From positions 30,489 through 94,488 of the forward strand of contig DUPN01000100.1 in NCBI GenBank assembly GCA_012838305.1: DNA of 64,000 nt, read 5' to 3'. The notes below the pieces were generated by a model. That model did no database searches and had not been told where the DNA came from. It was given only the letters and a program-made list of their open reading frames with translations. The position numbers and the translations under genes were made by a program. This document shows, piece by piece, positions 15,086-60,770 of this stretch. Position 1 is the first letter of the stretch, and every line of letters starts with the position of its first letter. This stretch comes from Bacillota bacterium (lineage in GTDB: Bacteria > Bacillota > Limnochordia > Darwinibacteriales > Darwinibacteriaceae).

Positions 15086-15516
15086 GTGTACTTTGGGAAG
15101 GTTTGCTGCAGGGGATGCGAGGTGTCGGTACCATCGCTCTGGTGGTGATCCCACTGATGATTACCTTGGAAATCGCAGAGAGCAATGGTTGGCTGCAGAA
15201 GCTAAACCGGGTAGTATCGAAGCCCTTTAGGACCATAGGTCTCAGTGAGGAAGGGGCATTTCCTGTGGTTGTGGCCATGGTTTTCGGTCTCACCTTTGGA
15301 TCGGGTGTCATCATCAACCATGTTCGCCGCGGCCAAGTAAGCCGCAAAGAAGCGCGGGTCACAGGGACCTTTATGGCCTTGGCCCACGCCTTAATTGAAG
15401 ATACCCTAATTTTCTGGGCTCTCGGTGCGCCTTTCCTGCTGCTTTTGGCACCGCGACTGCTGGTGGCCTATGCGATGGCCTACATCGTGCATAAGCTAAC
15501 GCCCGCTGAGTCCTAA
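15082..15516 (+). CDS. nucleoside-recognition (Gate) domain membrane protein, partner subunit
   Basis: In-frame ATG 15082 within track ORF 14959-15516 overlaps the upstream stop (ATGA). About 144-aa membrane protein. Confidence 0.55.
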   Translation: MSVLWEGLLQGMRGVGTIALVVIPLMITLEIAESNGWLQKLNRVVSKPFRTIGLSEEGAFPVVVAMVFGLTFGSGVIINHVRRGQVSRKEARVTGTFMALAHALIEDTLIFWALGAPFLLLLAPRLLVAYAMAYIVHKLTPAES

Positions 15517-16652
15517 CCCACAGGGACAACCTCCAGGCGGTCGATGACCCAATGATTCTGACCAGGGGATAACTCCAGGTTCAAAAGGAGCTTTGTACGT
15601 TCTGCGTGAGGTACAAAGACGGTGATGGCAAAGGGCTCTAAGACAGCATACTCAACCGTCCAGGGTACCACAGGGTTCAGGCTCAGCAAAAATTGGAGGA
15701 CATCCCCCTGGCCCTGGGCGATGCTAGGGTTAAGTAAGGAGAGGAGCCTGTCTTCGTTGGCGGCCTGCACCGCCAAGCGCATCGCACCGACAAACTCTTC
15801 CACAGAGTGCAGCACTTCCCTGGGAAGGTCTGGCCCTTGGGGGGTCAGGGCGAAGGATACGAGCTCCAGACGGTCGCCCCGCTCCTGCCAGAGCACGGAC
15901 GCCTGATAGCGGAAACCTCTGTCTGTGGAAAACAAGATCGTATGCTCATCCTGGGCTGAACTCGTGACCCTTCCATAGGAGCTGGGCAGGCTGGCCAGGT
16001 ATTGCCCCAATCCGGCCTGGCGCAGAGGGTGGCTCAGCAGAGCCTCGATTTCCCCCACATTTCTCTGATTGATGGAGTTGGTCAGCCTGGTTACCTGCAT
16101 CTGCATCCTGGACGCTCCTGCCCGCGTAGGTGGATCAACGAGCGGGGGCGTTTCTGTCAGGGGCTGATCGGCCGCTGCAAGGGCAGTACTCCTCACGGTG
16201 AGCGCTGGATAGAAGGGGGGCTCGCTCTGCCAGGAGACCAGGCTCCAATCGTCCGGCAATGTGAAATGAATCTGGGGGCTTTCAATGGCAAAAGAGAACT
16301 CTGGAAACCAGAGACTGTCCCGATCCAACAAAACCTCGCTGTTTCTTGGGCTCAAGAACCCTTCGTAGGAGAGATTTAAGGTCTGCCGCCGGACTTGCTG
16401 CAGTGACAAGGTGACCACTGTGCCATGTGCGCTCCGCTGGATATTGTACTCGCGCAGTTCGTCGGCCCACAACTCCGTAATCTGGGCTGAGGGGAAGAGC
16501 AAAAAGGATGGCGCCGCACTTCCTGGTTCCATGGTGACTTCAAGCTGAACCCGGAGGAAACCGCTCTCCGGCAGGAAGAAGACCTCCGCTTGGGCCAGGG
16601 CCGATGTGCTCCATAAAAGAAGTAACAACAGACAGTAGACGCTTTTTCTCAT
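15513..16652 (-). CDS. secreted hypothetical protein
   Basis: 379 aa. Cleavable signal peptide MRKSVYCLLLLLLWSTSALAQA. I recognise no family. Start overlaps the GNAT stop. Confidence 0.55.
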   Translation of the reverse strand: MRKSVYCLLLLLLWSTSALAQAEVFFLPESGFLRVQLEVTMEPGSAAPSFLLFPSAQITELWADELREYNIQRSAHGTVVTLSLQQVRRQTLNLSYEGFLSPRNSEVLLDRDSLWFPEFSFAIESPQIHFTLPDDWSLVSWQSEPPFYPALTVRSTALAAADQPLTETPPLVDPPTRAGASRMQMQVTRLTNSINQRNVGEIEALLSHPLRQAGLGQYLASLPSSYGRVTSSAQDEHTILFSTDRGFRYQASVLWQERGDRLELVSFALTPQGPDLPREVLHSVEEFVGAMRLAVQAANEDRLLSLLNPSIAQGQGDVLQFLLSLNPVVPWTVEYAVLEPFAITVFVPHAERTKLLLNLELSPGQNHWVIDRLEVVPVG

Positions 16653-17178: not shown

Positions 17179-17201
17179 TGTGCACAGTTTGTGCTCACAA
17201 A
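17179..17201. promoter_or_regulatory. tandem palindromes at the transcription start (candidate operator)
   Basis: Perfect palindromes TGTGCACA (17179-17186) and TTTGTGCTCACAAA (17188-17201) lie between the -10 and the RBS. Confidence 0.3.
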
Positions 17202-17217
17202 TTTGGGGAGGTCAAGG

Positions 17218-19827
17218 ATGCATCCATACATAGAATTTGTCAACCCTCATTTAGGCAAATTATTGACCGAAATTGGCCTGGACAAACGTTTTGTGCGTGG
17301 GAGTGGGGCTTACCTATATGACGATGAACAGCAAGAGTACCTTGACTGTATTGCAGCCTACGGTGCCTTGCCCTTTGGTTATAATCCCCCCGAAATCTGG
17401 CAGGTACTCCATAATCTAGAATCTAACCAAGAGCCAAGTTTTATACAACCCTCCTTGCTGGAAGCCGCCGGGGACTTAGCTGCGGGACTGATTGCAGCGG
17501 CACCCCCGGGTTTGAAGCAAGTGACATTCGCCAACAGCGGTGCTGAAGCTGTGGAAGCCGCCTTTAAGCTTTGCCGGGCCAAAAGTGGCAAGATGACAAT
17601 TCTGTCCACGACAAACAGTTTTCATGGTAAGACCCTGGGCGCTCTGTCCGCAACGGGAAATCCTGACTACCAAAGAGTATTTGGAGCCCCGGTGGCGGGT
17701 TTTCAGCATGTGCCCTATGGGGATATCCCAGCTCTAGAGGCTTATTTAGAGGAATATGCCCAGGATACAGCGGCCTTTATCGTGGAGCCTATTCAAGGCG
17801 AGGGTGGTATTATCGAAGCTCCCCGGGGCTATCTTGGCGAGGTACAAAAGCTTTGTGCCAAGCACGGCGTATTGACAATATTCGACGAGATCCAGACAGG
17901 GTTGGGGAGAACAGGTGCCATGTTCGCCTGTGAACGGGAAGAGGTCACCCCCGACTGTTTAGTCGTGGCCAAGGCCCTCGGGGGCGGACTCATCCCCATT
18001 GGCGCTGTGCTGTGTAAAGAAGATGTCTACAGTGAGGACTTTGGCCTCAAACATTCTTCCACCTTTGCCGGCAACGCCCTTGGCTGCCGAGTTGGTCTGG
18101 CCGTTTTGGATCGCTTGACCCAAGATGACCACATGCTCCTCCGGGAAATCCGCCGCAAGGGCCGCAAGCTCAAGGCTGCTCTCGTGGCGGTGGCGGATCG
18201 CTATCCCCACATCGTCCAAGGGGTGCGGGGAGAGGGATTGATGCTCGGTCTGGAGTTTGTCCATTGCAGAGAGCCGTTCCCCCATAGCCTCTTGGGGGTC
18301 ATGGCTGAGCTTGAACTCTTAACGCCCATGGTGGCATCCTATTTATTGAATGTGGAGAGAGTACGAGTGGCTCCAACGCTTAACGGTGCTAGCGTAATCC
18401 GGATTGAGCCGCCCTTGATCATCACGGATGCCCAGATTGATCGCGTGATTGAGGCCGTGGAAAACACCGTGGCCATGTTGGCCCAACGAAACACCGCCGC
18501 CTTCCTGGGGCACTTGGTGGGCTATGGCTTTTCTCTGAACCAAGCTACTCCCAAGGCAGAAGAGGTGGTCAAGGTTGAGCCCCGGCCTGAAGATGGACGT
18601 TTTGCTTTTTTGGTGCATCCGGTGGACCTGCACAACTATACGGAGTTTGATGCCAGCTTAGGCAGTCTAAGCCCTGAACAGCTCGCCGATCTCAGTTCCC
18701 GGTGGAATGACATGGTAGAGCCCTTTGTAGTCAGCAGCTCCAGGATCGTGGACCATCTGGGGCAAAGTGCCTATGGTGATTTTATCTGTGTTCCCAAAAC
18801 AGCCCAGCAGCTCTTGGCCGACCCCGAGGGGGCTTTGCAGGAAATCGCATCCGCGGTGCAGTTAGCCGCTGAGAGGGGTGCCAAAATTGTTGGCTTAGGA
18901 GCCTATACCTCCGTTGTGACCATGGGCGGCCGGCAGCTTTTGCCTCATACCAAGGTGGCCCTGACGACGGGAAACAGTTATACTGTCGTCTCGGGTGTGG
19001 AAGCTCTGCTAGAAGCTGCCAAACGCCTAGAGATCGATGTGCACTGTGCAACCGGCGTCGTGGTTGGCGCGGGGGGAGCTATCGGCAAGGCCCTGGCACT
19101 GCTTCTATCCGAACAGGTCCAGAAGCTGATTCTGGTGGGAAATCCGGCACGTCCAAAAAAGAGTGAGTACCGCATGCTCAAGGTAGTGGCGGAGATCATT
19201 GGCCATCTTAAGGAGATGGGCGAGGCTGGCCATTCCTTCGCAGAAGATAGCCTAGGAGCCTGGGTGCAGAGCTTAAGGGGTATTCCATCAAGTGCAGATT
19301 CCCTAACGAAATGGGTCGACTATGTGCAAGAGCTTCTGAACAAACCCTCGCCTGTGAGGATTACTATTAGCCGTGAAGATGCAGTACCCAAGGCCGACCT
19401 ATTGATGGTCGCAACCAGCAGCTTGGAAGCCTTAATCACGCCGGAACTTCTGAAACGGGGGGCCGTTGTGTGTGATCTGTCCCGACCTAGCAATGTGAGT
19501 GAAGCGGTCCTTAGGGAACGTCCTGACGTCCTGGTCATCGACGGCGGGATTGTCGCCATGCCGAACTCCCCCGATTTGGGATGGAACTTCGGTTTTGAAA
19601 AGGGAACAGGATTCGCCTGCATGTCGGAGACGATCATGCTGGCCTTGGAGAAACGTTATGAGCATACGAGCTTGGGGGCGGATCTGAATGTGAAACAGCT
19701 GGCGCTGTTCCGGGACCTAGCAGCGCAGCAAGGTTTTACCCTGGCCGGGTTCCGGAATCTGGATCGGCCGCTCGATCCCGCTCTGTGGGAACGTGTGCGA
19801 GCATTCAGGCTCACGTCCAGCGCCTAA
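17218..19827 (+). CDS. fusion protein: class-III PLP aminotransferase (N) + acyl-ACP-reductase-like NAD(P)-binding domain (C)
   Basis: N-half: FANSGAEAVEAA, DEIQTGLGRTG, VVAKALGGG (PLP lysine), HSSTFAGN. C-half from about residue 450: FAFLVHP, GLGAYTSVV, LTTGNSYTV, VVGAGGAIG (Rossmann) and GFACMSE. From memory these track the cyanobacterial AAR blocks GLIGH, LGGFTSII, FTTGNTHTA, VVGATGDIG and MFACFAE. ATG 17218 chosen behind GGGGAGG. Confidence 0.85.
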   Translation: MHPYIEFVNPHLGKLLTEIGLDKRFVRGSGAYLYDDEQQEYLDCIAAYGALPFGYNPPEIWQVLHNLESNQEPSFIQPSLLEAAGDLAAGLIAAAPPGLKQVTFANSGAEAVEAAFKLCRAKSGKMTILSTTNSFHGKTLGALSATGNPDYQRVFGAPVAGFQHVPYGDIPALEAYLEEYAQDTAAFIVEPIQGEGGIIEAPRGYLGEVQKLCAKHGVLTIFDEIQTGLGRTGAMFACEREEVTPDCLVVAKALGGGLIPIGAVLCKEDVYSEDFGLKHSSTFAGNALGCRVGLAVLDRLTQDDHMLLREIRRKGRKLKAALVAVADRYPHIVQGVRGEGLMLGLEFVHCREPFPHSLLGVMAELELLTPMVASYLLNVERVRVAPTLNGASVIRIEPPLIITDAQIDRVIEAVENTVAMLAQRNTAAFLGHLVGYGFSLNQATPKAEEVVKVEPRPEDGRFAFLVHPVDLHNYTEFDASLGSLSPEQLADLSSRWNDMVEPFVVSSSRIVDHLGQSAYGDFICVPKTAQQLLADPEGALQEIASAVQLAAERGAKIVGLGAYTSVVTMGGRQLLPHTKVALTTGNSYTVVSGVEALLEAAKRLEIDVHCATGVVVGAGGAIGKALALLLSEQVQKLILVGNPARPKKSEYRMLKVVAEIIGHLKEMGEAGHSFAEDSLGAWVQSLRGIPSSADSLTKWVDYVQELLNKPSPVRITISREDAVPKADLLMVATSSLEALITPELLKRGAVVCDLSRPSNVSEAVLRERPDVLVIDGGIVAMPNSPDLGWNFGFEKGTGFACMSETIMLALEKRYEHTSLGADLNVKQLALFRDLAAQQGFTLAGFRNLDRPLDPALWERVRAFRLTSSA

Positions 19828-31722: not shown

Positions 31723-32070
31723 GTGTTATTTTCGCTACTTAGCGCCCTGGGTCTCTGGCTGGCCGAGGGAATCGGTTTCTTAACGGGTTTTGTCACCAGC
31801 GGGAGCGCCTTCCCCAAACCTCTTAGGCCCGAAGAGGAGAAGGAACTCTTAATGCAAAAAGAAGCAGGCGACGAAGGCGCGCGCAACATCCTCATTGAGC
31901 GGAACCTTCGCCTCGTAGCACATATTGTCAAGAAGTTCGATAACACCGGCGAAGACAGTGAAGACTTAATCTCCATCGGGGTAATCGGTTTGATTAAAGC
32001 GATCAACACCTTCAATCCGAGCAAAAACACCCGTTTGGCTACTTACGCAGCCAGGTGCATTGAGAATGAG
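31723..32070 (+). CDS. sigK: sporulation sigma factor SigK, 5' segment (pro-sequence and regions 1.2-2.4; spoIVCB-like), interrupted
   Basis: GTG start behind GAGGGGG. AFPKPL pro-sequence junction, [45 protein letters not shown]. After codon 116 the track ORF continues into 25 unrelated codons inside the element. Confidence 0.92.
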
Positions 32071-32081
32071 AATTCACTGTC
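32058..32081 (+). repeat. attL junction: CATTGAGAAT-GA-GAATTCACTGTC
   Basis: The sigK-side arm and the element-side arm flank the GA (32068-32069) of the shared GAGA core. Confidence 0.6.
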
Positions 32082-34377
32082 AAGCGGGGAGCCCAATCCG
32101 AATTTCTCCCCCCTCTTTGAGGGTGTGGATTTGCCCGTAAAGGAGTAGTTCGAAAGGCGAACCTTCGATCTGGCTCACCGCAACTTCGTTAGCGCTGACC
32201 CGAACGATTAAGTGGTGGCCGCGGAACAGGACTCTAAAGGAGTAACCATTCCACTTTGTGGGAGCAAAGGGCCTCAGTGAAAGGTGATCGTCTTCCATGC
32301 GCAGGCCGCCAAAGCCATAGACAACAGACATCCAGGTCCCTGCCATGCTCGTAATATGCAGACCGTCATCAGTATCGTTATTGTAATTATCCAGATCCAG
32401 CCGAGCAGTACGCAGATAGAGCTCGTAGGCTTTGCTTTTGTAGCCGATTTCAGCAGCCATAATCGCATAGACACAGGGTGACAACGACGATTCATGGACG
32501 GTCATAGGTTCATAAAAATCGAAGTTGCGTTTTTTTGTGTCCAAATCGTAGCGATCGCCGAAAAAGAAGAGTCCCTGCAGTACATCGGCCTGTTTAATGA
32601 AGCACGAACGCAAAATGCGATCCCAGGACCAGTGCTGGTTGAGGGGCAGTTCGCTGCGGGGGATTGCATCCACACTCAAGAGTTCCTTATCCATAAACCC
32701 ATCTTGCTGTGCAAAGACCCCCAGATCAGGCAGGAGGGGATAGTACATGTTCTGCACAATGTCTTCCCACATGTGGAGCTCCTTTGGATCCGGTCTCAAA
32801 TGACCCGGAATCTTGGCCCCTAGCTCTTCTAGGACCTCCAGGGTATATTCAAGGCACCAGGAGGCGATGCGGTTGGTGTACCAGTTGTTGTTGACATTGT
32901 TCTCATACTCATTGGGGCCGGTCACGCCCAAAATCATATAGACGCCCTTTCTAGGCTGAAACGTCACCCTGCTGGCCCAGAACCGGCAAATTTCTACCAG
33001 GACGTCCAGACCGTACTGGACGAGGTAGTCCTGATCGCCAGTGTAACGGACGTAGTTGAAAATGGCGTAGGCAATGGCGCCATTGCGGTGGATTTCCTCA
33101 AAGGTAATTTCCCATTCGTTATGGCACTCTTCGCCCGTCATGGTCACCATGGGGTAGAGGGCTCCTTTCAGCCCCAGCCTGGCCGCGTTTTCCTGCGCTT
33201 TTTCCAGATGATGATACCGATACATCAGCAGATTCCTGGCAATCTGGGGGTCCCGGGTGCTCAGATAGAAGGGGAGGCAATAGGCTTCCGTATCCCAGTA
33301 GGTGCTGCCGCCATATTTCTCGCCGGTGAATCCCTTCGGTCCAATATTGAGGCGGGGATCCTCGCCCGTATAGGTCTGATGCAGATGGAAAATGTTAAAG
33401 CGGATGCCTTGCTGGGCGGCCACATCACCGGTGATTTGGATATCGCTGTCCTCCCAAACCCGGGCCCATTGCGCGGCGTGGTCCTGGAATAGTTCGCTGT
33501 AGGGCCTTTTGTGTTGCTGCAAGAGGCCAATGGCCTGATCGGATACTGTCTGGGCCGGGTGATCGCGGCTCGTGGTCACAGCAACCACTTTCTCCAAACG
33601 AAGACTGTCTCCCCTCTGCAGTACTGTGCTGATTTCCCCCTGAGCATAGCGGGGGGAGGCAGTGTACGCAGCTTGGAGGTCCGTAACTTCCTGGTCGTTC
33701 AAGTAGAGAGAAAAGGAACTGGCCGCGGCCACCACAAAACCAGACTTCTTCGTCTCCATGGTAACCAGCTGCACACCGGGTGCGCTGGATTGGTCCAGTG
33801 CCTGCCAAAAGTCCTCTCCGTAATTTGCATCTTCATTGACAATATTTCCATCCAGATAGGGGGTGAAGGTGACGGCCGCCCCCTTGTTAGTGGGATCGTC
33901 TTCCAGAGTGATCTTGTAGCTGATACAAGCCAGCTCTCGCCGGGCTTTGCTCACGAAACGCCGGGTGAGAATGGAGAACGTGCGTCCGTCGCCGTCGACT
34001 ACCTCGAAGAGGCGGGTTAACTCTCCCTTGTGCATATCCAGGGTTCGACGAAACCTCGTTGGTTTCCAGTAATGGAGATCAAGGGGAGTCCCTCCCAGAT
34101 GCACGTTGATGCCGATAAAATTCACGGCATTGAGCACTTTGGCAAAATACTCAGGATAGCCCACCTTCCACCAACCCACTACAGTGCGATCGGGATAGTA
34201 GACTCCGGCCATATAGGTGCCCTGCAGACTGTTACCGCTGTATGCTTCTTCGAAATTACCGCGCATGCCCATATAGCCATTGCCGAGGGACATCAAACTC
34301 TCAACCACCCGGTTTTGCTCTGGACGGAATCCATCCTCAATGACCTGCCACTCATGGGTCTCTATGAATCGTTTCAA
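32080..34377 (-). CDS. GH65 family disaccharide phosphorylase (maltose/kojibiose/trehalose phosphorylase type)
   Basis: 765 aa, TTG start behind [34 protein letters not shown] (catalytic Glu block) and full-length GH65 architecture. The stop codon is 9 bp from the att core. Confidence 0.9.
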
Positions 34378-34469: not shown

Positions 34470-35126
34470 TTAGGCAGGGAGAATTCGCAGCAGATCCTGC
34501 AGGCCAAAGGAGGCAAAACCCGTGATCACATAATGGGCCTGGGCGAGGGTGTGCTCGTCGCCTACACCGATGGCCACCATCTGGGCTCGCAGCGCCGCTT
34601 CGATCCCGGCCTGGGCATCTTCAAAGACTACCGCAGATTGGGGAGCAATGTCCAAAAGGGATGCGGAGAGTGCAAACACTTCCGGATCGGGCTTGGCTTT
34701 TGACACTAGATTCCCGTCTACGATCAAGTCGAAGTAGTCTGTCAGTTCCACTCTCTCCAGGATGGTACGGGCATTTTTGCTGGCAGAACCAAGGCTGATC
34801 TTGATACCGGCGCTTTTCAGTTCGTCCAGGAAGTCCAACACACCGGGGAGTATTTCCGAAGCGTCCATTTGGGTGATGTACTCCACATACCAGGTGTTCT
34901 TGGCCTCGGCCAGTCTTGCCTTCTCTTCGTCAGTCCTCTTTTGCCCTCCGATCTCCAGTAGTATATCCAAGGAACGCATCCGGCTCACGCCCTTGAGACG
35001 CTCATTATCCTCTTCATGAAACGCGATTCCGATGGTCTCACCCAGACGTTTCCAAGCCAAATAGTGATACTTGGCAGTGTCCACAACCACTCCGTCCAGG
35101 TCAAAAATGGCCAACTGTAAATCCAT
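34470..35126 (-). CDS. pgmB: beta-phosphoglucomutase
   Basis: AIFDLDGVVVDTAKYHYLAWKRL, LGSASKNA, SKAKPDPEVF and FEDAQAGIEA closely follow L. lactis beta-PGM. Start set to ATG 35126 (AAGAGGAGG RBS) rather than the longer track ORF. Confidence 0.9.
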   Translation of the reverse strand: MDLQLAIFDLDGVVVDTAKYHYLAWKRLGETIGIAFHEEDNERLKGVSRMRSLDILLEIGGQKRTDEEKARLAEAKNTWYVEYITQMDASEILPGVLDFLDELKSAGIKISLGSASKNARTILERVELTDYFDLIVDGNLVSKAKPDPEVFALSASLLDIAPQSAVVFEDAQAGIEAALRAQMVAIGVGDEHTLAQAHYVITGFASFGLQDLLRILPA

Positions 35127-35205
35127 GGACAGACCTCCTCTTTGCCCCATTATATCATGATTGGATTTTTCCGGCATAGTCTTGATCAAAAAGAGGTGGT
35201 AGAAG

Positions 35206-36039
35206 TTGATTGCCATCTATGCCCGGGTGAGTACAGAGGAACAGGCTAAACATGGTTTTAGCATTCCAGCTCAAATTAGGGAGTGTCAGAACCTGATTGG
35301 TCACAGGCAGGCCCTGGTCTTCTCTGACCAGGGTGTTTCCGGGGAGACTCTGATCAGACCCGCCTTAGAGGAGCTGCGCCAAAGGATCGAAGTAGGCGAG
35401 ATCAGTGCCGTCTACTGCCTGGATCCTGATCGTCTCTCCCGCAAACTCCTGCACCAGCTCTTACTGACGGAGGAGTGGGAGCGGAAGGGGATAGCCCTGC
35501 ATTTCGTGCATGGTGACTACAAGAAGACGCCGGAGGGAAATCTCTTTTATGCACTCAGGGGAGCAATTTCCGAATTCGAGAAGGCCAAGATTACCGAGCG
35601 CATGTGCCGTGGACGCAGGGAAAAGGCACGGCAGGGCCGGGTACTTAGGGACTTTCAAATCTATGGGTATGACTTTGATAGTCAACATGAACAGCTGATA
35701 ATCAATGGGAGGGAAGCGCAAACAGTGCAGCGCATCTTCCACTCTATCGCTACCGCCAAACCTGGAATGGAAAGCATATCGGCCATCGCCAGGACTCTGA
35801 CCAGGGAGGGGGTACCCACCAAACGAGGGGCCAAGATCTGGCATCGCCAGGTGGTCAGGCAGATTCTCAGTAACCGTACCTACCTGGGGGAATTCTACCA
35901 GAATAAGTGGGATGCATCAGGTGCTCGGGTTCGGCTGCGTCCCCGAGCCGAGTGGATTCTGATTCCCTGCCCGCGGATCATTGATCCGCAGCTCTTTGGG
36001 GAGGTCCAGGAGGTTCTGTCAGTGAACTCGAGATCTTAA
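35206..36039 (+). CDS. serine recombinase (SpoIVCA-like) with only the catalytic and recombinase domains, 277 aa
   Basis: TTG start behind GAGGTGG. IAIYARVSTEEQ (Ser nucleophile), CLDPDRLSR, LRGAISEFEKAKITER (helix E), then recombinase-domain blocks YGYDF, RIFHSI, WHRQVVRQILSNRTYLGE and PRIIDPQLFGEVQEVL. It ends where the zinc-ribbon domain normally begins. Confidence 0.85.
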   Translation: MIAIYARVSTEEQAKHGFSIPAQIRECQNLIGHRQALVFSDQGVSGETLIRPALEELRQRIEVGEISAVYCLDPDRLSRKLLHQLLLTEEWERKGIALHFVHGDYKKTPEGNLFYALRGAISEFEKAKITERMCRGRREKARQGRVLRDFQIYGYDFDSQHEQLIINGREAQTVQRIFHSIATAKPGMESISAIARTLTREGVPTKRGAKIWHRQVVRQILSNRTYLGEFYQNKWDASGARVRLRPRAEWILIPCPRIIDPQLFGEVQEVLSVNSRS

Positions 36040-36041
36040 TG
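36018..36041 (+). repeat. attR junction: GTCAGTGAACTC-GA-GATCTTAATG
   Basis: The element-side arm lies inside the recombinase 3' codons. The sigK-side arm contains the recombinase TAA and the sigK codons ILM. Confidence 0.6.
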
Positions 36042-36386
36042 CATCTGCGCACCACAAAGCGGGTCCGTCAGGAAATCAAACTTTACGAGCCCATTGGCTC
36101 GGACCGGGACGGCAATGAGATCAGCCTGATGGATATTCTCAGTTCCGATGAAGACGAGGTTTTAGACACCGTGGTTTTGAACATGGACCGCAGTCTCTTA
36201 AAGGACCGTTTTCACTGTTTATCCCCGCGGGAACAAACGGTATTGGAATTAAGATTCGGTCTAGGCGATCATGAAAAGCTGACCCAGCGGCAGATTGGCC
36301 GTCATCTCGGGATCTCCCGTTCCTACGTCTCCCGCATCGAAAAGAGGGCTTTGGGCAAACTACTGCATGAAATGGGACCGTCTTAA
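36033..36386 (+). CDS. sigK: sporulation sigma factor SigK, 3' segment (regions 3-4; spoIIIC-like)
   Basis: (I)LMHLRTTKR..., LYEPIGSDRDGNEISLMDIL, and the region 4.2 HTH TQRQIGRHLGISRSYVSRIEKRALGKL. It continues the frame of the 5' segment after element removal. Confidence 0.92.
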   Translation: MLMHLRTTKRVRQEIKLYEPIGSDRDGNEISLMDILSSDEDEVLDTVVLNMDRSLLKDRFHCLSPREQTVLELRFGLGDHEKLTQRQIGRHLGISRSYVSRIEKRALGKLLHEMGPS

Positions 36387-40704: not shown

Positions 40705-40725
40705 GTGGCAAAGGGTGAGTTAACC

Positions 40726-41622
40726 ATGGAGAAGTATCTATCTCCGACTTTGCGGGCCATTGTTCAGCAAGCTGCCTTACCTGCACTGGAAGAAATTCGG
40801 ATCCGCCTGAATCGACCCCTTATGGTCAAGAACCGGCAGGGATTCCGATTCCTATCCATCCAGGGGCAGCCGACCTCGGCTGCCCACGCTTACATTGTGA
40901 ACAGAGATGATCTAGAGCGCACCTTGCAGCTCGTGACAGAGAATTCTTGGTACGCCTGGGAACAGGAGATTCAAGGGGGGTATTTGACGCTTCCCGGAGG
41001 ACACCGGGTAGGCCTGGGAGGAAAGGCGGTGTACGCAGCGGGGAAGCTCAAGACGATCAAACATGTTTCGTCTCTTAACTTCCGACAGGCCAGGGCAGTT
41101 GTGGGTGCAGCCGATCCAATTATAGGCAAGGTGGCCCCAAAAGACAGTCCCAGGATCCTTTCCACCCTAATTGTCTCTCCCCCCGGGTGCGGCAAAACTA
41201 CATTGCTGCGGGATCTCACCCGTCAGGTGGCCAATCGGGGCTTCCAGGTGGTCGTAATCGATGAACGCTCCGAGATCGCTTCGTCCTACCGGGGTGTGCC
41301 CCAGTTGGATGTGGGCCTGCAAACCGATGTCCTGGATGGATACGATAAGGAACTCGGCGTGAACCACGCCCTGCGAGGTTTAGGCCCAGAAGTGGTGGTA
41401 ACAGATGAAATCGGTCACGGCGGGGATGCCCGCATCCTGGCAGAGCTGGCCCGCAGCGGGGTCAGGGTGATCGCCACATGCCATGGAGAGTCCTGGGAAC
41501 AGCTGCAAAGTAGAAGCTGGGCCCAGGGTTCGTTGGAGATGTTTGAGTTGGTGGTCTTCCTATCTCGACGCAGGGGTCCGGGCACTATCGAATCGGTTCT
41601 AACAGTAAACAGGGGTTCATAA
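40726..41622 (+). CDS. spoIIIAA: stage III sporulation protein AA (ATPase)
   Basis: Walker A SPPGCGKTTLLRDL, Walker B VVVIDE, and first position in an eight-gene spoIIIA array. ATG 40726 chosen. Confidence 0.9.
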   Translation: MEKYLSPTLRAIVQQAALPALEEIRIRLNRPLMVKNRQGFRFLSIQGQPTSAAHAYIVNRDDLERTLQLVTENSWYAWEQEIQGGYLTLPGGHRVGLGGKAVYAAGKLKTIKHVSSLNFRQARAVVGAADPIIGKVAPKDSPRILSTLIVSPPGCGKTTLLRDLTRQVANRGFQVVVIDERSEIASSYRGVPQLDVGLQTDVLDGYDKELGVNHALRGLGPEVVVTDEIGHGGDARILAELARSGVRVIATCHGESWEQLQSRSWAQGSLEMFELVVFLSRRRGPGTIESVLTVNRGS

Positions 41623-59414: not shown

Positions 59415-60770
59415 GTGAGAAAACTGTTGCTCCGTGTGGGGCTAACGCTAATTCTAGCTTGTCTCTTGGCCTTGGCGACCGTTCCCTATTGGGTTGCAGC
59501 TGTGGGGATTCCCAGCGAAATCAAGGTGTTTCCCGGAATGGAACTGTCTTTGGACCTTCAACCCCCCTTTCGGATCCACGATCCAACGGGACTGGAAGTG
59601 ACAGGTCTTTTTGACACCGAGAGCCTGGGGACCAGTGTTTATAGGGTAAATCTCTTTGGTTGGCTTCCCTTGACCGAAGTGGTTGTGGATGTAGTCCCCT
59701 TGGTGCGAGTGGTCCCAGGGGGTCAATCCATCGGGGTGCTGCTCAGCACCGATGGATTGATGATTGGTCAACTGGGTGCGGTTTTGGATATGGAGGGTGT
59801 AGAGCGCTTTCCAGCGAGGGATGCAGGTATTCAGCCCGGGGATATTCTCCTGGCCATCAACGGCCATCCTCTGCGACGACCAGAAGAAGTAAGCCAACTG
59901 GTGAACTCCCTAGCCCAAGAGAAATCAAGCTTGGAAATACAGGTCCGCCGTAATCATCGTATCCTGACCTTTGAAGTCCAGCCTGTTCAATCCAAGCAGG
60001 CCAATATTTTCGGACAGAGTTCTTTGATCTATCTCTTGGGCATCTATTTGGAGGATCCCGCAGCAGGGGTTGGAACGATGAGTTTTTATGATCCAGAGAC
60101 GGGACGGTTTGGTGCCTTAGGGCACACGATCACCGACAGCAGAGGTCGGCCCCTCACCATTGCCAGCGGAAGCATTGTGGAAGCCTCCATTGACAGCATT
60201 CGCTATGGAAGCCGGGGTTCTCCCGGAGAGAAAGTGGGCTTCTTCCACGGCGATCAGGACGTGCTCGGAACCATCGACTCCAATACAGGTTTTGGGATTT
60301 TTGGTCAGCTAAAGGGGGCGATCCCCTCCGGAGCCTTTTCCGAACCCATTCCGGTGGCCTTTGCCTACCAGGTAAGGCTGGGACCTGCAAAAATCTACAC
60401 TGTACTTCAGGGCAACCGCGTAGAAGGGTTTTCTGTGGAGATCGTCAAGGTCGTTAACCAGACCAGGCCAGGGGAAAAAGGGATGATCATTGAGGTCACC
60501 GATGAGAGGCTGCTCCGGGAGACCGGCGGCATCATTCAGGGCATGTCGGGCAGCCCCATTGTGCAAAATGGTATGTTGGTGGGGGCCATCACCCACGTGT
60601 TTGTTAATAATCCAACAAAAGGATATGGCAGTTTTGCTGAGTGGATGGTGTACGAAGCAGGACTGGCGCCAGAGTCAGAAATTCCCGCGAAACAATCAGC
60701 TTCGCGGGAAGGTTTTTTTTTACACATAGAGAAAGACGTTAAGGAGCGGGTCTTAAGTATGTCATCATGA
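59415..60770 (+). CDS. spoIVB: SpoIVB peptidase (S55) with PDZ domain
   Basis: N-terminal TM, PDZ block AGIQPGDILLAINGH, GALGHTITD, and catalytic serine block GIIQGMSGSPIV. Conserved position after recN. Confidence 0.9.
   Translation: MRKLLLRVGLTLILACLLALATVPYWVAAVGIPSEIKVFPGMELSLDLQPPFRIHDPTGLEVTGLFDTESLGTSVYRVNLFGWLPLTEVVVDVVPLVRVVPGGQSIGVLLSTDGLMIGQLGAVLDMEGVERFPARDAGIQPGDILLAINGHPLRRPEEVSQLVNSLAQEKSSLEIQVRRNHRILTFEVQPVQSKQANIFGQSSLIYLLGIYLEDPAAGVGTMSFYDPETGRFGALGHTITDSRGRPLTIASGSIVEASIDSIRYGSRGSPGEKVGFFHGDQDVLGTIDSNTGFGIFGQLKGAIPSGAFSEPIPVAFAYQVRLGPAKIYTVLQGNRVEGFSVEIVKVVNQTRPGEKGMIIEVTDERLLRETGGIIQGMSGSPIVQNGMLVGAITHVFVNNPTKGYGSFAEWMVYEAGLAPESEIPAKQSASREGFFLHIEKDVKERVLSMSS
60682..60721 (+). 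terminator. intrinsic-terminator-like hairpin plus T9 inside the spoIVB 3' codons
   Basis: TTCCCGCGAA (60682-60691) pairs with TTCGCGGGAA (60701-60710), with a 9-nt loop, then GG and T9 (60713-60721). The spoIVB stop is at 60768-60770. Confidence 0.5.

Follow-up and report, generated by a model that had tools for sequence, protein, structure and literature searches.

In a 64,000-nucleotide stretch of contig DUPN01000100.1 (assembly GCA_012838305.1), from a Bacillota bacterium of the Limnochordia, order Darwinibacteriales, sigK, which encodes a sigma factor of sporulation, is interrupted by an element of 3,962 bp that holds a GH65 phosphorylase, a beta-phosphoglucomutase (bPGM) and a serine recombinase; we call the whole stretch the window. 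The recombinase is only 277 aa long, and has neither the zinc-ribbon domain (ZD) nor the coiled-coil (CC) of its full-length relatives. It is likely, in our judgement, a domesticated serine recombinase of minimal size that resembles a resolvase, serves excision only and acts on 28-bp sites; as the truncated enzyme is conserved under selection in about 20 related species, it probably still cuts out the sigK insert. We also lean towards the more specific view that the catalytic domain, helix E and recombinase domain (RD), 277 aa in all, perform programmed deletion on 28-bp sites alone, without ZD, CC or recombination directionality factor (RDF), by a convergent reduction that happened at least twice in one clade of sigK elements.

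The recombinase gene (35206..36039, + strand) begins at a TTG preceded by a ribosome-binding site, GAGGTGG (35193-35199). A first-pass annotation had read three parts in its product, a catalytic domain, helix E and a complete RD, and Pfam, AlphaFold2 and Foldseek all support that anatomy. Pfam places the Resolvase domain at residues 2-145 (E 1.7e-33) and the Recombinase domain PF07508 at residues 170-272 (E 1.6e-17; model positions 3-100 of 102), and gives no match to Zn_ribbon_recom (the ZD, or DBD2; PF13408); the frame ends 5 residues past the RD, where the boundary had been drawn, and the CC is gone together with the ZD. The nucleophile S9 sits in YARVSTEEQ; in an alignment of homologues D75, R76 and R79 of the catalytic domain are invariant, and S9 is kept in at least 90%, some of the sequences lacking the N-terminus. 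The AlphaFold2 model has a mean predicted local distance difference test score (pLDDT) of 84.4, with 75-96 over most of the RD and a terminal RD helix at residues 261-276. The top Foldseek matches of the catalytic and RD parts are SPbeta integrase (9dxh), Bxb1 (9iu2), phiC31 (4bqq) and LI integrase (4kis), and residues 63-293 of SPbeta integrase align with the protein in sequence. We asked of Pfam whether the last ~120 aa might be something other than RD; they are genuine recombinase domain, so the truncation as first described stands, and the C-terminal domain is an RD of ~125 aa rather than a helix-turn-helix (HTH) of ~45 aa. The protein thus departs from large serine recombinases (LSRs) in four of six defining features, yet is, by the sequence relationships described below, a derived member of the LSRs by descent.

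The last codons, TCG AGA TCT TAA (36028-36039), carry the frame through the P arm of the right attachment site, attR, and past the crossover to a stop inside sigK, just as had been read. The stop was also said to overlap the sigK ATG by 1 nt: the overlap is there, but the ATG (36039-36041) is the codon of an internal methionine of SigK (...CIENE-ILMHLR...), not the sigK start codon. The overlap of stop and internal methionine (36035-36041) reads TAATG in the window and TGATG in relatives, a classic geometry for translational coupling that is probably just a consequence of the conserved ILMH codons.

The short frame is not an error of sequencing. That a frameshift or mis-join hides a normal SpoIVCA of ~500 aa has next to no probability, as the 3' coding sequence of sigK follows directly on the RD, no ZD-like sequence lies in any frame of the window, and the same structure is found in 24 independent assemblies of the organism and at 20 other species-level loci. 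A ZD extension concealed by a frameshift or sequencing error, which had been named beforehand as grounds for giving up the truncation, was sought with a six-frame hidden Markov model (HMM) search of ZD and C-terminal regions, and nothing in the window scored at E <3; nor is there a second serine recombinase or a ZD-coding remnant in any frame of the 64 kb. We also rejected a split integrase in the style of SSV1, regaining its ZD across attP, as reading on through the circle gives 298 aa that run antisense to the GH65 gene and hold no ZD.

The truncation is also widely shared. More than 45 homologues at 62-78% identity to the 277-aa protein are likewise about 277-295 aa long; most of the C-termini inspected are att-derived, ...LSVNSRS or close variants, and a subgroup at 64-66% identity, like loci L018-L020, has different C-terminal ends. 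Our survey of loci, in one-per-species genomes and Limnochordia-like metagenome-assembled genomes, found ZD-less sigK-insert recombinases of 277-284 aa in 20 other species-level genomes. Sixteen further loci (L001-L015 and L033) repeat the layout of the window, with GH65 phosphorylase, bPGM and recombinase between two parts of sigK; their recombinase frames, 277-280 aa, stop at TAA or TGA inside the TTRATG of sigK, and the element measures 3.97-4.19 kb in the 14 of these 16 that have both junctions on the contig. At L018-L020 the elements are 1,620-1,633 bp long and hold only bPGM and a recombinase of 280-284 aa; they are smaller than the smallest skin element (2.6 kb) of the 2022 survey discussed below. 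The exact protein of the window is listed in 165 blocks of the assembly collection, and all 24 of the contigs that we read show the same integrated context. We conclude that the truncation is a trait of a clade, and that sequencing error and one-off pseudogenisation are excluded.

The element is not universal in the wider group. Two loci, L081 and L082, have an intact sigK in the synteny of the window (ECF S-component, sigK, yqeG, yqeH ... spoIIIA operon), which shows that the element is missing from some related lineages; we considered these loci as excised forms and rejected this, as they belong to different species that share the synteny of the window and represent lineages without the element. 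One further locus, L024 (DASQNU010000291.1), is a contig of 5.5 kb binned as 'Candidatus Bathyarchaeia archaeon' with a recombinase 58% identical to the Bacillota skin recombinase of the window; the archaeal label is likely mis-binning or contamination.

The truncated gene is under purifying selection. By the method of Nei and Gojobori, with most pairs saturated, the ratio of nonsynonymous to synonymous substitution rates (dN/dS) of the short recombinases is 0.08-0.13 at dS of about 0.8-1.2, against 0.08-0.155 for GH65, 0.03-0.085 for the 5' half of sigK and 0.03-0.065 for its 3' half. Within the recombinase pN/pS is 0.19 in the catalytic domain, 0.04 in helix E and 0.25 in the RD, and internal stops occur in none of 17 loci. 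The low dN/dS and the constraint on both domains argue that selection preserves the truncated enzyme at the protein level. Both halves of sigK are intact in every locus. In the window the 5' segment (spoIVCB-like; 31723..32069, + strand) encodes the pro-sequence and region 2 (Pfam Sigma70_r2) and ends at the central GA of the left site, attL, and the 3' segment (spoIIIC-like; 36032..36386, + strand) runs from ILMHLR... through region 4 (Pfam Sigma70_r4). Rejoined at the central GA they are in frame and align without gaps to the intact SigK of a related lineage (P0121) at 79% identity, with an identical junction, confirming the split gene that the first-pass annotation had recognised. The dN/dS of the two halves, with a junction colinear with intact SigK, implies that sigK is still needed as one gene.

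These ratios bear directly on a second proposal, also among the options of the first-pass annotation, that the element is immobile and sigK never rejoined. SigK-dependent spores would then be lost, or the SigK fragments would act separately, with the ATG at the recombinase stop (TAATG/TGATG) serving as the start of the 3' part. This is very improbable: although an excised form is seen in no assembly and the TAATG overlap does resemble translational coupling, purifying selection is stronger on the sigK halves than on the cargo, the recombinase itself is under selection, the att arms and the synonymous sites that overlap them are conserved as DNA, which would be needless without recombination, TTRATG reflects no more than the conserved ILMH codons of sigK, the recombinase frame ending ahead of the ATG in several relatives, and the spoIIIA operon and spoIVB are intact. 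We know of no natural split sigma factor.

In the window attL is 28 bp long (32055..32082), with a B half-site GTGCATTGAGAAT (32055-32067), a central GA (32068-32069) and a P' half-site GAATTCACTGTCA (32070-32082); attR, also 28 bp (36017..36044), has a P half-site TGTCAGTGAACTC (36017-36029), a central GA (36030-36031) and a B' half-site GATCTTAATGCAT (36032-36044), and overlaps the final 8 codons of the recombinase. The ends of the element form an inverted repeat and have GAGA in common (32068-32071 and 36030-36033), of which dyad symmetry marks the first GA as the central dinucleotide. The reconstructed attP of the window is a near-palindrome of 13+2+13 whose P and P' arms match at 11 of 13 positions, the B and B' arms of the reconstructed attB matching at 9 of 13; the predicted junctions are GCATTGAGAATGAGATCTTAATGCA for attB and CAGTGAACTCGAGAATTCACTGTCA for attP, with GCATTGAGAATGAGATCTTAATGCATCTG and CAGTGAACTCGAGAATTCACTGTCAAGC as the respective junction k-mers. 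In each of the four half-sites CAnTGA lies equally far from the central GA, and the register and central GA are common to all 20 loci analysed, the window included. In the P' consensus,.TGACA.TGAatTC, 10 of 13 positions are at least 85% conserved, and only the last 3 nt are coding (the GH65 stop codon). Where the recombinase gene overlaps attR, all 17 loci use the same three six-fold-degenerate codons, S272 TCA, S275 TCG and R276 AGA; as a control, none of 133 invariant-residue columns elsewhere in the gene uses a single codon across these loci. The identical codons and the conserved P' arm argue that the att sites are maintained as DNA.

These are crossover sites of the kind used by small serine recombinases (~28 bp with inverted half-sites of 12-13 bp), here 13+2+13 bp, rather than LSR-type att sites of about 40-50 bp with a distinct spacing of ZD motifs, as dyad symmetry covers 13 nt per arm. 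Exact copies of the P half-site in the 64 kb are confined to the two ends of the element; we therefore rejected res-type accessory binding sites, and found none that are res-like near the element, looser matches to the half-site occurring in the 64 kb at chance frequency. The palindromic arms of attP also provide stop codons for the converging genes: the TGA of GH65 is the TCA of the P' arm (32080-32082), and in two relatives with recombinases of 378 aa (L016 and L017) the recombinase TGA is part of the P-arm TGACA at attR.

Orthologous elements with the same cargo and synteny form a natural deletion series, in which the recombinase has ZD and CC, ZD without CC, or no ZD, and the outer parts of the attachment sites vary with it. 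Positions 14-26 of the P and P' arms match at 12 of 13 in L088, whose recombinase of 471 aa has ZD and CC; at 6 of 13 in L086 (456 aa, ZD and CC), contiguously as GCCT..TT; at 5 and 4 of 13 in L016 and L017 (378 aa, ZD only); and at 0-6 of 13 in the 18 ZD-less elements analysed (277-284 aa), where chance gives about 3.25. The inner 13 nt of the arms match at 8-12 of 13 throughout the series. Inverted-repeat symmetry of the P arm covers 13 nt in ZD-less elements versus 17-26 nt in those with a ZD. Relatives with a ZD include P0032, P0036, P0043 and P0063, and in the alignment the 378-aa relatives are gapped against the CC of P0043, P0054 and P0063.

The decay of the outer arms weighs on a further alternative, in which the truncated protein is necessary but not sufficient and a helper supplies DNA binding or synapsis: either a paralog of full length encoded elsewhere, acting in mixed tetramers or in trans, or an architectural protein of the host. 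Fis and HU serve invertases as architectural proteins, and accessory sites or proteins are as a rule needed by small serine recombinases of like domain organisation; a CC-less LI integrase is weakly active and dimerises poorly; and our view of the genome is 64 kb, so a paralog may lie elsewhere. A ZD-bearing partner would, however, require the motifs of the outer arms, and in every ZD-less element these match no better than chance; no accessory half-site copies lie near the element, the element has no further space for a reading frame, and each independent loss of the ZD would have required a helper at hand. We consider a helper unlikely. A crippled gene rescued by a paralog was one of three options that the first-pass annotation raised without choosing between them, and is disfavoured because dN/dS is near 0.1 and the ZD-binding arms have decayed.

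A Skr-like frame for a directionality factor is likewise missing from the short end of the series. Skr, the RDF of the B. subtilis skin element, is a protein of 64 aa; its gene shares 101 nt with the start of spoIVCA, the two being read in different frames (PMC6957869). We found a Skr-like frame of 64-67 aa at the 5' end of the recombinase gene in most of the full-length sigK-linked loci examined (L021-L037 and L071), contained in a longer frame in L022 and L037. Its start lies 109-118 nt ahead of the RVST codon, in frame +2; it has the consensus MHVKFxxGExxDxxRxxCYxYLLEKFRRE..., and occurs in Paenibacillus, Brevibacillus, Aneurinibacillus, Alicyclobacillus and others. It matches the published description of B. 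subtilis Skr, and Skr appears to be a widespread family. An HMM built on the non-overlapping N-terminus of this frame matched L088 (E 1.4e-8) and L086 (E 1.1e-3), none of the 20 ZD-less loci, and not L016; L017 keeps a positional remnant of the frame. In the window the intergenic region of 79 bp ahead of the recombinase leaves no room for it. We also considered bPGM as a moonlighting RDF, as it is the only constant neighbour of the recombinase, and leave this as speculation: nothing supports such a role, and the CC and ZD platform for RDF binding is absent.

A bootstrapped neighbour-joining tree over the 268 shared residues groups the window recombinase with sigK-linked recombinases. The type-B elements form a clade with L016 and L017 at 96% support, and the ZD-less L018-L020 group with the full-length L086 at 75%; L088 and the Bacilli-type enzymes fall outside both groups. 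Regain of the ZD being implausible, the ZD was lost at least twice on this tree, and the differing end-points of the deletions (...VQxxLSVNSRS, ...LSSLSVNSRS, ...GQGRRRVLSVNSRS and the tails of L018-L020) agree with this.

We suggest that the element is a vertically inherited, domesticated 'mini-skin' in which evolution has reduced an LSR to its catalytic domain, helix E and RD. Of the options first raised, a naturally minimal recombinase is thereby favoured, by purifying selection on the protein, by att sites constrained as DNA and by the decay of features that depend on the ZD. We infer the activity and timing of the enzyme as follows. In the mother cell the recombinase would be transcribed from a CATA-type, sigmaE/K-like promoter; its dimers would use the RD alone to bind the 28-bp attL and attR and, after synapsis, would cut both sites at the central GA, rotate the ends and rejoin them, deleting the element as a circle and restoring an in-frame sigK (...CIENE-ILMHLR...). 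Having no ZD or CC, such an enzyme would not discriminate between attP, attB, attL and attR and would need no directionality factor; direction would instead be set only by the geometry of intramolecular excision and by the fate of the circle, which would be lost in a cell undergoing terminal differentiation. Since the forespore retains the germ-line copy, reintegration would never be called for, and the whole directionality module, CC, ZD, RDF and outer att arms, could have been shed.

The promoter in this scheme is a candidate in the divergent control region (35127..35205), the 79 bp between bPGM and recombinase. A CATAG..T motif, CATAGTCT (35175-35182), lies about 24 nt ahead of the recombinase start, and is similar to the CATA-type -10 used by sigma factors E and K in the mother cell. 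ATTATATCA (35149-35157) is the reverse complement of TGATATAAT, the predicted extended -10 of the bPGM/GH65 operon on the - strand; the motif ATTATAnCA, the reverse complement of the extended -10 TGnTATAAT, is correctly placed for this divergent operon. Both promoter motifs are conserved over 22 loci although synonymous sites are saturated elsewhere. The conserved CATA-type -10, with the selection on the sigK halves and the att sites, gives indirect support to excision in the mother cell during sporulation. Their assignment to particular sigma factors we infer from motif likeness.

Several observations weigh against excision by the short enzyme. A CC-less LI integrase dimerises more than 100-fold more weakly and yields little product (Gupta et al., 2017; PMC5499577), so the ZD-less enzyme could be feeble too. 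In metagenome contigs the junction pattern of the excised chromosome (attB) gave 8 matches, all in sigK genes of distant Firmicutes at 50-70% aa identity, and that of the circle (attP) gave 0. Among about 15 billion proteins there is no near-identical intact SigK, none exceeding 81% identity to the rejoined protein; the three at 77-81% are from different species (65-78% nt identity). The 90% clusters of the window recombinase, P0002 and P0026 hold no length variant of the kind that the circle would encode, and the 24 contigs read for the window protein, as noted above, are integrated without exception. Since assemblies favour the majority, vegetative form, the absence of an excised form is only weak evidence against excision. 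Isolated RDs of characterised LSRs bind DNA weakly. The organisms are uncultured, and their sporulation is presumed.

The element is a real skin-type element. It shares with the B. subtilis skin the insertion point in sigK (...CIENE-ILMHLR...) and a serine recombinase gene at the edge adjoining the 3' sigK segment, and over catalytic domain and RD the window recombinase has 55-58% identity to the full-length enzymes linked to sigK in Paenibacillus, Brevibacillus and Alicyclobacillus. The B. subtilis skin has an excision-only function and vertical inheritance (PMC6957869). It differs in being prophage-like and 48 kb long, in contrast to a 4-kb element with metabolic cargo, and its SpoIVCA, 500 aa with ZD and CC, needs the 64-aa Skr, in contrast to a 277-aa enzyme that has no ZD or CC and beside which the Skr-like frame is gone. 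Galperin et al. (2022; 10.1101/2022.02.25.481979, Table S7) listed 15 skin elements, 2.6-48 kb in size, whose recombinases are 487-562 aa long and none of which is from Limnochordia; a split sigK and a SpoIVCA-like recombinase at the edge are common to these and to ours, with no other gene common to all, while the recombinases here are 277-378 aa and related elements are as short as 1.62 kb. The skinCd of C. difficile (CD1231, RDF CD1234) and the gin element of B. cereus (GirC/GirX) are likewise small, non-phage or degenerate elements in sporulation genes, excised in the mother cell by a serine recombinase, with a directionality factor as a second protein that confers specificity for the cell type (PMC5025042, PMC5595907); CD1231 is an enzyme of 505 aa, and neither a directionality factor nor its binding platform is present here.

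Two other kinds of enzyme are close in design. The engineered CC-less LI integrase recombines PxB and LxR alike, weakly and without RDF (PMC5499577), and this RDF-independent LxR deletion, with the distinction between PxB and LxR lost, is the behaviour that we propose. The engineered enzyme keeps its ZD and has low activity; the deletion here is natural, extends through the whole ZD and is maintained by selection, and the 378-aa relatives are effectively natural delta-CC enzymes. The architecture is also reminiscent of gamma-delta/Tn3 resolvase and of Hin and Gin, in which one catalytic domain is followed by helix E and by one DNA-binding domain at the C-terminus, with neither ZD nor CC, and which act on crossover sites of ~28 bp with inverted half-sites of 12-13 bp and a 2-bp centre. 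Resolvases and invertases, at about 180-200 aa, have an HTH of ~45 aa where the 277-aa enzyme has an RD of ~125 aa; no res accessory sites or enhancer are evident here, and by phylogeny the enzyme is a derived SpoIVCA.

Full-text searches of the literature found no description of a ZD-less skin recombinase or of a skin element in Limnochordia, and the paper on MBA03/Darwinibacteriales does not mention sporulation.

The two cargo genes are both on the - strand. The first (32080..34377) encodes a GH65 disaccharide phosphorylase of 765 aa (Pfam Glyco_hydro_65N/m/C; NCBIfam NF010380, 1139 bits) and is found in all ~4-kb elements. The second (34470..35126) encodes bPGM, 218 aa with its true start at MDLQLAIFDLDG (TIGR01990, 243.8 bits against a cutoff of 189.4), and adjoins the recombinase in every related element, the 1.6-kb ones included. 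Elsewhere in the window the spoIIIA operon and spoIVB are uninterrupted, in agreement with the first-pass annotation. SpoIIIAA (40705-41622) scores 281.2 bits, just below the TIGR02858 cutoff of 281.3, and SpoIVB (59415-60770) has Peptidase_S55 and PDZ domains; these uninterrupted frames are consistent with a sporulation-competent genome. A frame of 878 aa (17191-19827, + strand) has a class-III aminotransferase domain confined to residues 35-426, which leaves its C-terminal half unassigned, and the adjacent frame of 379 aa (15513-16652, - strand) has no Pfam match.

We suggest that these elements bear on what gives LSRs their directionality, and on how they can lose it. The ZD and CC are regarded as the source of site identity, synapsis control and directionality in LSRs, and here a natural enzyme is kept by selection without them. 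Natural orthologues of 456/471, 378 and ~280 aa on matched att sites provide a ready structure-function series, and this series links the large and small serine recombinase architectures, with living intermediates if our reading is true. The joint loss of ZD and CC, RDF and outer att arms after domestication suggests that they form a single dispensable directionality module. Should the 277-aa enzyme prove active on its 28-bp sites, few known deletion systems would be as compact. For the organisms themselves, abundant uncultured Bacillota of anaerobic digesters, a split sigK would be annotated as a pseudogene, and their capacity to sporulate would be misjudged.

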